Sequence record: NC_047812.1
Reading direction: 5' to 3' (one strand)
Source: Escherichia phage vB_EcoS_CEB_EC3a
Length of the DNA: 44,234 bases
Part shown: piece by piece, positions 4,662 through 39,177 of the stretch
Layout of the letters: every line of letters starts with the position of its first letter
Position numbering within the stretch: position 1 is the stretch's first letter
The notes under the pieces: generated by a model
What the model saw: the letters and a program-made list of their open reading frames with translations, nothing else
The model's database searches: none
What the model was told of the DNA's origin: nothing
Program-made: the position numbers and the translations under genes

Positions 4662-4739
4662 GCTCTGCTAGCTCAACAGGACAGCAGCAACGACCTTCTA
4701 AGTCGTAGGTTACTGGTTCGAATCCAGTGCGGAGCGCCA
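4662..4739 (+). tRNA. tRNA-Arg (anticodon TCT), CCA encoded
   Basis: Manual cloverleaf: acceptor GCTCTGC/GCGGAGC, anticodon stem ACGAC/GTCGT with loop CTTCTAA, T-arm ACTGG-TTCGAAT-CCAGT, discriminator G + CCA. Confidence 0.8.
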
Positions 4740-5680: not shown

Positions 5681-7246
5681 ATGTCTTTAGTATGGGAAGA
5701 AATGACCATTCAGGAAAAGATGGCCGTTAAGGCGATATCAGAACACAGCTTCGAGGGTTTCCTTCGTTGCTGGTTCCAGATTACACAAGGCGAGCGATAC
5801 ATCCCTAACTGGCATCACAAGTACTTGTGCAGAATCATTGATGAGATTATCGCAGGAGATCGCAAGGACACCATCATTAACATAGCACCAGGCAGCGGAA
5901 AGACGGAAATTGCCTCAATCCACTTCCCGGCCTATTCGATGGTTAAGCTTAGGAAGGTGCGCAACCTTAACATCTCTTTTGCTGACTCCCTGGTTAAGCG
6001 TAACTCGAAGCGAGTACGTGACCTTATCAAGTCTCAAGAATTTCAGTCACTCTGGCCATGCAAATTTGGCACCTGCAAAGACGATGAGCTTCAGGTTCTT
6101 GATGAGAGTGGCAAGGTTAGATTTGAGTCAATATCAAAGGCGGCTGGAGGCCAGATTACTGGCGCTCGCGGTGGGTACATAACCGAAACATACAGCGGAG
6201 CCGTTCTTTTGGATGACTTTGACAAACCCGCAGATATGTTATCAGCAGTGTACCGCTCGAATAATCACGTAATGCTTAAAAATACGATTCGCTCACGTCG
6301 AGCCAGTTCTGTAAAAGGCAAAGCGACACCAATCATTTCGATACAGCAGCGGCTTCACGTCAATGACTCAACCTATTTCATGATGGAAGGCGGCATGGGT
6401 ATCGAATTCGATTTGATTAAGATACCAGCATTAGTTACTGAGGATTACCTAGACACACTACCTGAATGGATTAAAGAACAGTTTGAAGAGGATGTCCTTA
6501 GTAGTGAATACATAGAGCGCGATGGAGTAAGGTATTACAGCTACTTCCCTAAAAAGGAGTCAGTCAATGACTTGGTTGCGATGTGGGATAGTGACCCTTA
6601 CACCTTCCTTAGTCAGTATCAACAAGAACCAGTAGCTCTAGGTGGCAACCTTATTAACGTAGATTGGTTCCAGCGCCTTAGCGACACGTTCAGACCTCCA
6701 GCTAAGTACGATTATAGATTTATAACTTGCGATACAGCTATGACTACAAAAAGTTATAGTGACTTCTCTGTCCTTCAATTGTGGGGTTATAAAGATGCTA
6801 AGATTTACCTTATTGACCAGCGCAGGGGGAAATGGGAAGCGCCCGAGTTAGAGGCAGAGTTAATCGATTTCGAGAAGAAATCAAGGGCAACCAGTCAATC
6901 GGATGGTATCCTCCGAAAGATTATCATCGAGAAGAAAGCATCTGGAATCGGACTCATTCAATCAGCAAGTCGAGTCATGAGAACGCCAGTGGAACCTTAT
7001 GTTCCTGATAATGACAAGTTAACAAGGGTGATGAGTGCGCTGCCACAGATTAAGGCTGGTAACGTAGTTCTTCCTGAGTCTGCGCCGTGGTTAAGCGGAT
7101 TGCTTACTGAGATTGCGGCATTTACCGCTGACGACAGCCATAATCACGACGACCAAATTGATACCATGACAATGGCTATCAACCTGGTTCTGAACATTGC
7201 GGATGATCCTAAGTCGAGACTGATGCGCATAGCGGGAATGAAATAG
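5681..7246 (+). CDS. terL: terminase large subunit
   Basis: 521 aa; Walker A-like APGSGKTE near N-terminus; C-terminal nuclease-like acidic region; precedes portal. Confidence 0.85.
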   Translation: MSLVWEEMTIQEKMAVKAISEHSFEGFLRCWFQITQGERYIPNWHHKYLCRIIDEIIAGDRKDTIINIAPGSGKTEIASIHFPAYSMVKLRKVRNLNISFADSLVKRNSKRVRDLIKSQEFQSLWPCKFGTCKDDELQVLDESGKVRFESISKAAGGQITGARGGYITETYSGAVLLDDFDKPADMLSAVYRSNNHVMLKNTIRSRRASSVKGKATPIISIQQRLHVNDSTYFMMEGGMGIEFDLIKIPALVTEDYLDTLPEWIKEQFEEDVLSSEYIERDGVRYYSYFPKKESVNDLVAMWDSDPYTFLSQYQQEPVALGGNLINVDWFQRLSDTFRPPAKYDYRFITCDTAMTTKSYSDFSVLQLWGYKDAKIYLIDQRRGKWEAPELEAELIDFEKKSRATSQSDGILRKIIIEKKASGIGLIQSASRVMRTPVEPYVPDNDKLTRVMSALPQIKAGNVVLPESAPWLSGLLTEIAAFTADDSHNHDDQIDTMTMAINLVLNIADDPKSRLMRIAGMK

Positions 7247-7286
7247 CACAAATTGCTAAACACTAAAGCCACGGATGGCGTATAGT
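7244..7286 (+). promoter_or_regulatory. palindrome-promoter module (TAGCACAAATTGCTAAA, TATAGT 7281-7286)
   Basis: Motif family member; TAG 7244-7246 is terL stop. Confidence 0.6.
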
Positions 7287-7315
7287 TACTTCACACAAAC
7301 GAGAGGAGAAGAAAG

Positions 7316-7648
7316 ATGAAGGCAGTATTTAAAGGTTATAAAAAAGCTGGTTGTTTGGAATTTACTATTGGTAAGATTTATGAGCTATCAACGGCAACTG
7401 AGGCTTTCGGATTCTTAAAAGTGACTGATGACGATGGATTTAATGGAGTAATTATCCCAGGTGACACCTATGATTTCGAGGTGCTGATTCCAGATGAATT
7501 TATCAATAAAAAAAAGCAATTTAAATATTACATTAATGGCGAAGTGGTTACTAAGACAAAGTTCGATGATACGCTGTTATGCGTCAAGGATTTTAAATCT
7601 GATGGCATTGACACATCATCAATCAAGTTCGAAGTAAAATTCGAGTAA
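7316..7648 (+). CDS. hypothetical protein, moron-like insertion between terminase and portal
   Basis: 110-aa ORF with own module upstream and terminator downstream; GAGAGGAG RBS. Confidence 0.6.
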   Translation: MKAVFKGYKKAGCLEFTIGKIYELSTATEAFGFLKVTDDDGFNGVIIPGDTYDFEVLIPDEFINKKKQFKYYINGEVVTKTKFDDTLLCVKDFKSDGIDTSSIKFEVKFE

Positions 7649-7669
7649 CCACAAAAGCTATGATAAACT

Positions 7670-7693
7670 AGCCCCTACATGGGGCTTTTTTTA
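7670..7693 (+). terminator. intrinsic terminator
   Basis: AGCCCCTACATGGGGCT hairpin + T7. Confidence 0.75.
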
Positions 7694-7705
7694 TTGGAGA
7701 AAAAC

Positions 7706-8974
7706 ATGGTCAAGACAGACAGCTACGCCAATATCTTTCTCGGCGGCAGTGATGGTAGTGAGATTTACGGAAGTTTACAGAATCAAGCGCCTACAATTCT
7801 GGCTTCTCTTTATGCGGATAACGCGCTGGTGCGTAGAATTATCGACACAATCCCGGAGACGGCATTGGCGGCAGGGTTCCACATTGATGGTATTGATGAT
7901 GAGCCAGCATTTTGGTCGCGCTGGGACTACTTAGAGCTAACAAAACACATCAATGAAGCCTGGTCGTGGGCTAGATTGTTCGGAGGCTCTGCAATTGTTG
8001 CTATCGTTAAGGATAATAGAGCATTAACAAGTCCTGTCAGAGAAGGTGCAGAACTTGAAACGGTACGCGTTTACGACCGCACACAAGTAAAAGTACAAAC
8101 TCGAGAGGAGAATCCACGCAACGCACGTTTTGGTAATCCGCTAACCTATCGCATCACCACTAATGAGAGCGATATGTTCTACGATGTGCATTACAGTCGC
8201 ATTCACATCATTGACGGAGAGCGAATCCCTAACGCAATGCGTCGGCAGAATGATGGCTGGGGTCGCAGCGTTCTCTCCAGTGACATTCTTGACTCAATCA
8301 AGGATTACACCAACTGCGAAAGGCTGGCGACTCAACTGCTCAAGCGTAAACAGCAAGCGGTTTGGAAAGTCAAGGACCTGGCATTGCTTTGTGATGATAG
8401 TGAAGGAGTTGGCGCGGCTCGTTTACGTCTCGCTCAAGTTGATAACAACAGCGGAGTTGGTCAGGCAATTGGCATTGATGCGGAATCGGAAGAATACAGC
8501 ATTCTGAACTCTGATATTGGTGGGATTGATGCGTTCCTGGATAAGAAGTTCGACAGAATAGTTGCTCTGAGTGGTATTCATGAAATAATCCTGAAGAACA
8601 AGAACGTCGGCGGCTTATCATCAAGCCAGAATACAGCGCTTGATACATTCCATAAGTTAGTCGATCGCAAGCGTAACGCTGAGCTACTGCCGATTCTAGG
8701 GTTCCTGATTCCGTTCATTTCAGACGAGCAAGAATGGTCAGTTGAGTTTAATCCCTTAGCTCATGAGTCAGGCAAGGATAAAGCTGAGATTCTGGAGAAG
8801 AACGTAAGCAGCATTGCGACGCTAATTGCATCTGGCGCCATGGATAAGAACGAAGCACGTGATACACTACGCACTATCGCACCAGAGATTAAGATTGGTG
8901 ATAATGATATTCAGGCCGAGGAATCGGAGTTAATTACAGAGACAGAGGTTGTTAATGAAGAAATTGCGATATGA
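7706..8974 (+). CDS. portal protein
   Basis: ~420 aa ORF directly after terminase region; start chosen at ATG 7706 downstream of terminator with GGAGAAAAAC RBS. Confidence 0.75.
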   Translation: MVKTDSYANIFLGGSDGSEIYGSLQNQAPTILASLYADNALVRRIIDTIPETALAAGFHIDGIDDEPAFWSRWDYLELTKHINEAWSWARLFGGSAIVAIVKDNRALTSPVREGAELETVRVYDRTQVKVQTREENPRNARFGNPLTYRITTNESDMFYDVHYSRIHIIDGERIPNAMRRQNDGWGRSVLSSDILDSIKDYTNCERLATQLLKRKQQAVWKVKDLALLCDDSEGVGAARLRLAQVDNNSGVGQAIGIDAESEEYSILNSDIGGIDAFLDKKFDRIVALSGIHEIILKNKNVGGLSSSQNTALDTFHKLVDRKRNAELLPILGFLIPFISDEQEWSVEFNPLAHESGKDKAEILEKNVSSIATLIASGAMDKNEARDTLRTIAPEIKIGDNDIQAEESELITETEVVNEEIAI

Positions 8975-14307: not shown

Positions 14308-14312
14308 TTGCA

Positions 14313-18709: not shown

Positions 18710-18732
18710 AGGCCCCATTAGGGGCTTTTTTA
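18710..18732 (+). terminator. intrinsic terminator
   Basis: AGGCCCCATTAGGGGCTT hairpin + T6. Confidence 0.7.
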
Positions 18733-18744
18733 TTGGAGAAAATC

Positions 18745-25544: not shown

Positions 25545-25606
25545 GTTTCGTTTCGATGTGGTAATAGTATCGAATCCTTGCGATCAGTGTTTAGCAATTA
25601 GTGCTA
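25545..25606 (-). promoter_or_regulatory. palindrome-promoter module, minus strand (TAGCACTAATTGCTAAA; -10 TACTAT; leader TTACCACATCGAAACGAAAC)
   Basis: Reverse complement of 25545-25612 matches module; palindrome TAG is stop of Rha-like gene. Confidence 0.6.
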
Positions 25607-32054: not shown

Positions 32055-32078
32055 TGTGTAAAGTCTCCATTTGTAAAG

Positions 32079-32095
32079 TAGCACTAATTGCTAAA
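32079..32095 (+). promoter_or_regulatory. palindrome TAGCACTAATTGCTAAA in + orientation between two minus-strand genes
   Basis: Motif family member; possible downstream -10 TGTATAAAA at 32119-32127 would read antisense into primase gene. Confidence 0.4.
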
Positions 32096-32120
32096 GTGGA
32101 TTGTATCATCTTTCATGTAT

Positions 32121-32143
32121 AAAAAAACCTCCCGAAGGAGGTT
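32121..32143 (-). terminator. intrinsic terminator (minus strand) after primase gene
   Basis: Reverse complement AACCTCCTTCGGGAGGTT + T7. Confidence 0.75.
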
Positions 32144-33541: not shown

Positions 33542-33556
33542 TTTCTTCTCTCCAAT

Positions 33557-33587
33557 AAAAAAAGGATGTACCGATTATGGCACATCC
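33557..33587 (-). terminator. intrinsic terminator (minus strand)
   Basis: GGATGTACCGATTATGGCACATCC hairpin preceded on + strand by A7 (T-run on minus). Confidence 0.6.
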
Positions 33588-39000: not shown

Positions 39001-39177
39001 ATGACTAAAATGATTTTTTGCACCAAGAACAACTCCAAGACGCTGCCATTTACAGTTAACCAGCCGTACAATGCAGAGTATCAAGGTGACGGATACTACA
39101 AGATTTATGGCGACGATATGACGTGGATTTTAGCGCCGATTGATGGTTCGCTGGTTGAATTTATTATCGCAGACTAG
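39001..39177 (+). CDS. hypothetical small protein (58 aa)
   Basis: ORF with ACGAGGAAA RBS downstream of module, followed by terminator. Confidence 0.5.
   Translation: MTKMIFCTKNNSKTLPFTVNQPYNAEYQGDGYYKIYGDDMTWILAPIDGSLVEFIIAD

Follow-up and report, generated by a model that had tools for sequence, protein, structure and literature searches.

A moron-like optional gene between the large terminase and portal genes of Escherichia phage vB_EcoS_CEB_EC3a encodes a predicted two-domain protein of PHROG 14592

The definition of phage morons is reportedly due to Juhala and Hendrix, and HK97 gene 15 and the lambda genes bor and lom are said to be lambdoid examples. A classic moron is a gene of a temperate phage that is expressed from the prophage; the Drexlerviridae, in contrast, are known as virulent phages. 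The described proteins closest to the one analysed here are the members of PHROG 14592, namely Rtp rtp22, JK06 JK_35P, phiEB49 gp57, ACG-M12 gp63, and Bas01 bas01_0005 and bas01_0024. Small SH3-like proteins have also been described for Drexlerviridae: a lysis-module protein (DUF7244), for which a role in lysis was proposed (PMC13164509), and the non-essential Gp54 of phage Bas11, which directly binds and triggers the CapRel-SJ46 defence protein (PMC11578894). We analysed a window comprising the 44,234-nt sequence record, and thereby the whole genome, of the T1-like Escherichia phage vB_EcoS_CEB_EC3a (Drexlerviridae; hereafter CEB_EC3a; NC_047812.1), in which an initial annotation had pointed to a gene between the large terminase gene (terL) and the portal gene as a classic moron. 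Our results indicated that it is an ordinary accessory gene, moron-like, whose family is already catalogued as PHROG 14592. It shares with the other members the protein family, the terL-portal slot, the promoter module and the terminator context. The CEB_EC3a allele shows only ~35% identity to rtp22, however, and it has an undisrupted reading frame, unlike its closest counterparts in ACG-M12, ECH1 and phiEB49, which are frameshifted at an A-run.

The ORF was found where the initial annotation had placed it, at positions 7316-7648 of the plus strand. It starts with ATG and encodes a protein of 110 aa and 12.5 kDa, with a pI of 5.0 and neither arginine nor histidine. Between promoter and ATG is a short conserved leader (7287-7315), in which a strong Shine-Dalgarno sequence is found 7 nt 5' of the ATG (GAGAGGAGA, 7301-7309). 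The upstream neighbour is terL (5681-7246; Terminase_6C, phrog_38), and the downstream neighbour is the portal gene (Phage_portal_3, E = 1e-65). Translation of the portal gene almost certainly starts at ATG 7706, for which a predicted ribosome binding site is present (7694-7708 on the plus strand, with GGAG at 7696-7699), and not at the mechanically listed ATG 7679, which is inside the terminator hairpin; the former start matches the portal annotation of Rtp, BEK1-1 and DTL. The closest genomes were those of the Drexlerviridae/Braunvirinae coliphages ECH1, G8, ACG-M12 and PCEc3, with 88-90% DNA identity over the terS-portal region. A tRNA-Arg gene (anticodon TCT) is located upstream of terS at 4662-4739, and ACG-M12 carries one likewise. 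Since the dN/dS of the whole ORF was 0.34-0.36 against three relatives (PCEc3, G8 and SU57), and since a family of full-length homologues exists, these comparisons identify the ORF as a real coding gene.

The gene is preceded by a two-part module. Its 5' part is a palindromic, operator-like segment (AAATAGCACAAATTGCTAAACA, 7241-7262, plus strand) with 5-bp arms (TAGCA/TGCTA), and the first bases of this segment overlap the terL stop codon TAG (7244-7246). The arrangement TAGCA-N5-TGCTA looks like the binding site of a dimeric regulator. It is followed by a predicted sigma-70-like promoter (7257-7286, plus strand) with a -35 element TAAACA, an 18-nt spacer and a -10 element TATAGT (7281-7286). 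A generic sigma-70 scan gave this promoter 9 of 12 positions, and such matches are no commoner in the region than chance predicts; the promoter is significant because the module is repeated, not because of this score. When up to 3 mismatches were allowed, the 17-mer of the module was present in 12 copies in the genome, the expected number being 0.29. A PWM scan found ~16 copies, at 1414, 1912, 2371, 3091, 3261, 3833, 7246, 14310, 28021, 32081 and 36584 on the plus strand and at 25604, 26363, 42383, 43216 and 44051 on the minus strand. Their layout is AAATAGCAC-N-AATTGCTAAA, ~18 nt, TATAGT, a conserved leader with the consensus TTACCACATCGAAACGA..GAGG, a ribosome binding site and ATG, and the -10 element is kept in register across the aligned copies. 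The copies fall into two subtypes, CAC[N][AG]ATTGC and CACTTTTTGC.

The genome of T1 gave 21 matches to the module. It is also kept 5' of the divergent alleles in ACG-M12 and Rtp, and the relatives that do not carry the gene have no module at the terL-portal junction. The predicted promoter is a standard promoter/operator module used throughout the Drexlerviridae and is not imported. Thus, the palindrome-promoter module reported in the initial annotation (7244-7286) is present, dedicated to the gene and promoter-like, but it is one of ~16 copies and not foreign. Modules of the canonical type precede the genes for Erf, a helicase and an Ant-like protein, a membrane protein operon, and small genes without assigned function. 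The copy in front of the 7316-7648 ORF is the only canonical one inside the 19-kb structural block (5.1-24.3 kb). Because a variant copy occurs at 14310, in the tail block, the module is not a strict marker of non-structural genes.

An intrinsic terminator (AGCCCCTACATGGGGCT followed by a T7 run) is predicted at 7670-7693 on the plus strand, with a 6-bp GC-rich stem and a 5-nt loop. The extended fold around this hairpin (7662-7695) had a minimum free energy of -13.9 kcal/mol (z = -3.3). The initial annotation had noted that this terminator follows the gene. It is indeed there, but BEK1-1 and DTL carry the same hairpin at their terL-portal junction, and T1 has an annotated terminator at this position; none of these three phages has the gene there. 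Because it occurs in phages without the gene, the terminator is, as judged from these genomes, part of the phage backbone and older than the cassette. A unit of terminator tail and ribosome binding site (TTTTTATTGGAGA) was found at 7688-7700, 18727-18739 and 33549-33561 (minus strand), i.e. three copies against 0.15 expected, and the unit also flanks a second cassette copy in phage AugustePiccard (3355-3380 of that locus). An 11-nt complementarity between an A-run in the ORF (7504-7514) and the T-run of the terminator (7686-7696) was considered as an antiterminator and rejected, as it is of low complexity and is not kept in PCEc3 or G8.

Alignment with BEK1-1 and DTL, which are devoid of the gene, together with junction spans in 120 phage records, delimited a unit of 411 bp (7248-7658, plus strand) that some relatives have and others lack. 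It is bounded by an imperfect direct repeat, AAATAGC (7241-7247) and ACAAAAGC (7651-7658), of which the left copy serves as the 3' end of terL and at the same time as the start of the promoter module. In BEK1-1 and DTL, terL runs straight into the terminator and the portal gene (...GGGAATTAAATAGCCGTGATAAACTAAGCCCCTATATGGGGC...). For the junction spans, 50,697 phage records were searched by BLAST with a synthetic query in which the final 300 nt of terL were joined to the initial 300 nt of the portal gene, and the length spanned by each match gave the size of the insert; this replaced a scan of IMG/VR by TerL, which had given 7 loci, too few for statistics. Inserts of ~410-470 bp were found in ECH1, ACG-M12, PCEc3, 2725-N35, JulesPiccard, BEK2, T145P1, Rtp, IME253, phiEB49, Opt-719, Sadiya, AN_ECEAS and JK06. 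An empty slot, in which ~48 bp with just the terminator separate the two genes, was found in T1, BEK1-1, DTL, BEK6, OzMSK, JeanPiccard, phiA2-1, Sf12, AHP24, AHS24, AKS96, Rogue1, C119 and phiKP26, as well as in the sampled vB_EcoS DSM 12242 phages (a group of 43 records). Phages of the same genus or group can differ in the slot: JK06 has it filled and Rogue1 empty, and JulesPiccard has it filled and JeanPiccard empty.

The genes of this kind found in the slot all belong to one family. The claim that the gene is inserted between genes adjacent in many related phages held, as terL and portal are ~48 bp apart in T1, BEK1-1, DTL, Rogue1, JeanPiccard and many others, and the synteny comparison with T1-like phages indicated that the gene is optional among relatives. 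Judging from these genomes, it is an optional, dispensable insertion, and it cannot be an essential component of the virion or of packaging, because T1 and other relatives do without it.

The gene resembles lambdoid morons in its insertion between two genes that related phages have side by side, in its flanking promoter-like module and terminator, and in its deviant base composition: the GC content of the ORF is 34.2%, compared with 44.2% for the genome, which places it among the lowest 0.6% of 333-nt windows. Unlike lambdoid morons, the gene is carried by a virulent phage and would have no prophage-stage expression; its promoter is the repeated module of the family, and its terminator pre-exists in relatives that do not have the gene. 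Among 5,426 complete genomes of E. coli, none matched the cassette. The moron-like reading is thus largely borne out by the insertion, the promoter-like module and the low GC content, except that the terminator is ancestral and the module native to the phage family.

Related genes were found at other loci. In AugustePiccard, a second paralogue sits between two minor-tail genes, with the same promoter module, a hairpin of its own and the same TTTTTTATTGGAGAAAAC-ATG junction. Homologues with 31-34% identity are present in Vequintavirinae (~140 kb). In A7_1, the sole member of this group that was examined, the homologue is part of a series of small hypothetical genes and immediately precedes the DNA ligase gene; on a 92-kb phage contig, a homologue follows the gene for DNA polymerase A. 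The Drexlerviridae module was absent from both the A7_1 locus and the 92-kb contig locus.

The initial annotation had found no features to assign to the protein. A profile search, however, matched it to PHROG 14592 with E = 8e-40, residues 1-110 aligning to positions 2-116 of the 116-position profile. The family comprised 33 clusters at full length and 40 representatives (E <= 1e-3) among 1.84e9 proteins. AlphaFold2 with 26 homologues gave a confident two-domain model (mean pLDDT of 87), so the structure prediction, too, revises the earlier description. The N-terminal domain (aa 1-58; 7316-7489, plus strand) is predicted to be a five-stranded SH3-like barrel, and the modelled small barrel superposes on SH3 domains. 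It is followed by an inter-domain linker (aa 59-67; 7490-7516) of low pLDDT, predicted to be disordered at aa 60-65, which contains an A8 run (7508-7515). The C-terminal domain (aa 68-110; 7517-7645) has a predicted beta-beta-alpha-beta fold, ends in IKFEVKFE and represents the conserved portion of the family proteins; modelled alone, it reached a pLDDT of 95.

In a Foldseek search against viral models (BFVD), family members ranked first, followed by small DUF7244 and PRC-barrel phage proteins. The C-terminal domain had no significant structural neighbour in the structural comparison. Scans of the CEB_EC3a protein against Pfam, NCBIfam and PADLOC gave nothing usable, and PADLOC matched none of four family members. 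A ThiS match (E = 0.12) was noise, and matches to designed "Cake" propeller proteins in the PDB profile search were judged spurious, being sums of weak repeats. Large proteins matching the N-domain profile (lectin, fn3 and NBR1-type Ig repeats) were uninformative low-complexity beta-repeat matches, with the exception of two proteins that contain repeated DUF7244/DUF6501-like modules.

We then compared rates of evolution. The dN/dS was 0.38-0.45 for the N-terminal domain and 0.19-0.29 for the C-terminal domain, whereas terS, terL and portal gave 0.02-0.10, so that the dN/dS of the ORF is 4- to 18-fold higher than that of its neighbours. All values are below 1 and therefore do not demonstrate positive selection. 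Column entropy peaked at aa 27-46 (2.4-2.5 bits), a hypervariable stretch of the barrel that comprises strands 3 and 4 together with the loop at 27-33. The minima fell on the first strand, with 0.56 bits, and on the last, with 0.40 bits, and these terminal strands are strongly conserved over three phage lineages. By these measures, the gene is under constraint and yet fast-evolving in comparison with its neighbours. N- and C-terminal domain types are also shuffled among alleles.

We consider it about an even bet that this is a horizontally exchanged accessory gene whose non-structural product, expressed from a transcription unit of its own, binds a protein of the host or of a defence system, in counter-defence or host take-over. 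We favour a non-structural binder of host or defence proteins because homologues elsewhere lie in replication clusters, because the gene is dispensable, and because the variability is concentrated on the SH3-like domain. Counting against it, both known Drexlerviridae insertion sites are inside late structural operons. In such a scheme, the copy of the family-wide module would start a monocistronic mRNA of ~400 nt at ~7293, which would end at the terminator that stood between terL and portal before the gene was inserted. The protein made from it would be acidic and cytoplasmic, with two domains and a mass of 12.5 kDa. Its C-terminal beta-beta-alpha-beta domain may serve in oligomerisation or in binding a constant partner, and the N-terminal SH3-like barrel, variable at aa 27-46, may bind a variable host protein, so that the phage would benefit on some hosts only. 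The fitness, exclusion or anti-defence role suggested in the initial annotation is likewise an inference.

Gp54 of Bas11 offers an analogy for such binding, not a family assignment. Gp54 (PDB 9AXB) is a single domain of six strands, whereas the CEB_EC3a protein has two domains; 9AXB was absent from the results of the PDB profile search, the structural alignment showed 13% identity, and the structural score was no better than for eukaryotic SH3 domains. A more specific form of the preferred reading is possible, though we hold it to be on the unlikely side: the protein might be a modular counter-defence or defence-decoy adaptor, with a conserved C-terminal docking or oligomerisation domain and a hypervariable SH3-like domain that tracks host immunity, exchanged as a promoter-to-terminator cassette through homology of the modules. 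Slippage on the A8 run in the linker, which would switch between a full-length and an SH3-only product, is less likely.

If the product does bind components of host immunity, a two-domain SH3-type family would join the known phage-host interaction proteins; otherwise, the gene would be another small accessory gene. The 411-bp cassette, being dispensable and encoding a hypervariable surface, is a well-bounded candidate for functional screens, and natural presence/absence pairs exist among near-identical phages, including phages of the BASEL collection. Promoters and terminators recur as punctuation along the genomes of T1-like phages and can act as landing pads for accessory genes.

It is improbable, in our estimation, that the protein is instead a minor virion protein, i.e. 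an optional decoration or accessory protein at the head or near the portal, whose variability would reflect its exposure on the surface. This reading has the family label in its favour: PHROG 14592 carries the label "virion structural protein, head and packaging", and Rtp22, ACG-M12 gp63, JK_35P, phiEB49 gp57 and others are named "virion structural protein" in RefSeq. The gene also lies inside the head and packaging block, the second AugustePiccard copy lies between tail genes, and small beta-barrel domains are common among decoration proteins. The label, however, could not be traced: the original GenBank entries of the labelled proteins read "hypothetical protein" or "gp57", and a search of the accessible literature found no basis for the label, no proteomic report of the protein in purified particles and no direct study of the family. 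The virion proteomes of T1-like phages considered here were those of the AHP24 group (PMC4070988), Rogue1 (PMC3496638) and SH6 (PMC5238451), and these come from phages without the gene. AHP24 and Rogue1 have an empty slot by junction span, and in SH6, terL and portal are the consecutive ORFs 28 and 29 (PMC5238451). Relatives build their virions without the protein, and the gene is missing from many close relatives that make the same virion, which is not the pattern of a structural protein conserved at this position in all relatives, the finding that would have spoken against an accessory gene. In addition, the homologues of the two other phage groups are in replication or early clusters, and the gene has a predicted promoter of its own, of the class that precedes non-structural genes. 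The annotation as a virion structural protein is probably unfounded, and RefSeq, PHROGs and newly submitted genomes already carry it for this family.

Nor do we expect the cassette to be a selfish or neutral passenger of little benefit, spread by recombination at the modules and the terminator/ribosome-binding-site units or alongside the homing endonucleases that share its slot; this, too, appears unlikely. Several observations are consistent with it. The cassette ends are conserved at the DNA level (the 5' module, and the last ~30 nt of the ORF with the 3' UTR), even where the ORF interiors are too divergent to be aligned, as in the comparison with Rtp. The module and the TTTTTTATTGGAGAAAAC unit flank the second copy of AugustePiccard. 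HNH endonuclease genes occupy the slot in IME542 and e4/1c, and the slot of AugustePiccard holds an HNH gene together with the family gene. The family match splits into two out-of-frame pieces in ACG-M12, ECH1, SCS31 and phiEB49; in ACG-M12 and phiEB49, we confirmed an A7 instead of an A8 run, and their genes are annotated as truncated proteins of 102 aa and 68 aa. Such alleles suggest that the protein is dispensable, but the A7 runs may be either homopolymer sequencing errors or real, possibly reflecting slippage-prone inactivation of the C-terminal domain. Against the passenger reading, the protein is under purifying selection (dN/dS 0.35), its terminal strands are conserved over the three lineages, and no nuclease or recombinase motif was seen in the ORF in the Pfam and NCBIfam scans. 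As a separate observation, HNH genes sit in the terS-terL or the terL-portal gap of several relatives (Rtp, phiEB49, AugustePiccard, IME542 and e4/1c); as both gaps are affected, the junctions of the packaging genes are general insertion hot-spots.

The genome has a DUF7244 SH3 protein of its own, a stand-alone protein of 58 aa (39001-39177; Pfam E = 1e-29) encoded just upstream of the holin and endolysin genes. In an HMM search for paralogues among all ORFs of the genome, this borderline ORF was the only one found. Both proteins have a small SH3-clan beta-barrel with the motif FT.G..Y...G.Y.V.DD.G and are optional across Drexlerviridae; the 7316-7648 product differs in its extra C-terminal domain and its locus. 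The Pfam DUF7244 model gave sub-threshold matches in 3 of 26 family members (best E = 0.0053), and the CEB_EC3a protein did not reach its threshold. It is highly improbable that the protein is a lysis or envelope SH3 protein akin to DUF7244 that binds peptidoglycan or modulates the endolysin, as might be proposed from these matches, the BFVD fold matches and the lysis role suggested for DUF7244 (PMC13164509), since that role is itself a hypothesis, the hhalign alignment of the N-terminal domain with the 39001-39177 protein is weak (E = 0.0014, probability 18%), no hydrophobic segment, signal sequence or transmembrane segment was seen in the protein sequence, and the gene is not linked to lysis genes.

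Among the copies of the promoter module elsewhere in the window, the one at 32076-32140 on the plus strand is followed by no ORF. Both of its flanking genes are on the minus strand, and the copy continues into a hairpin, AAACCTCCCGAAGGAGGTT. It may act solely as an operator, or else be an antisense element or one that belongs to the minus strand.
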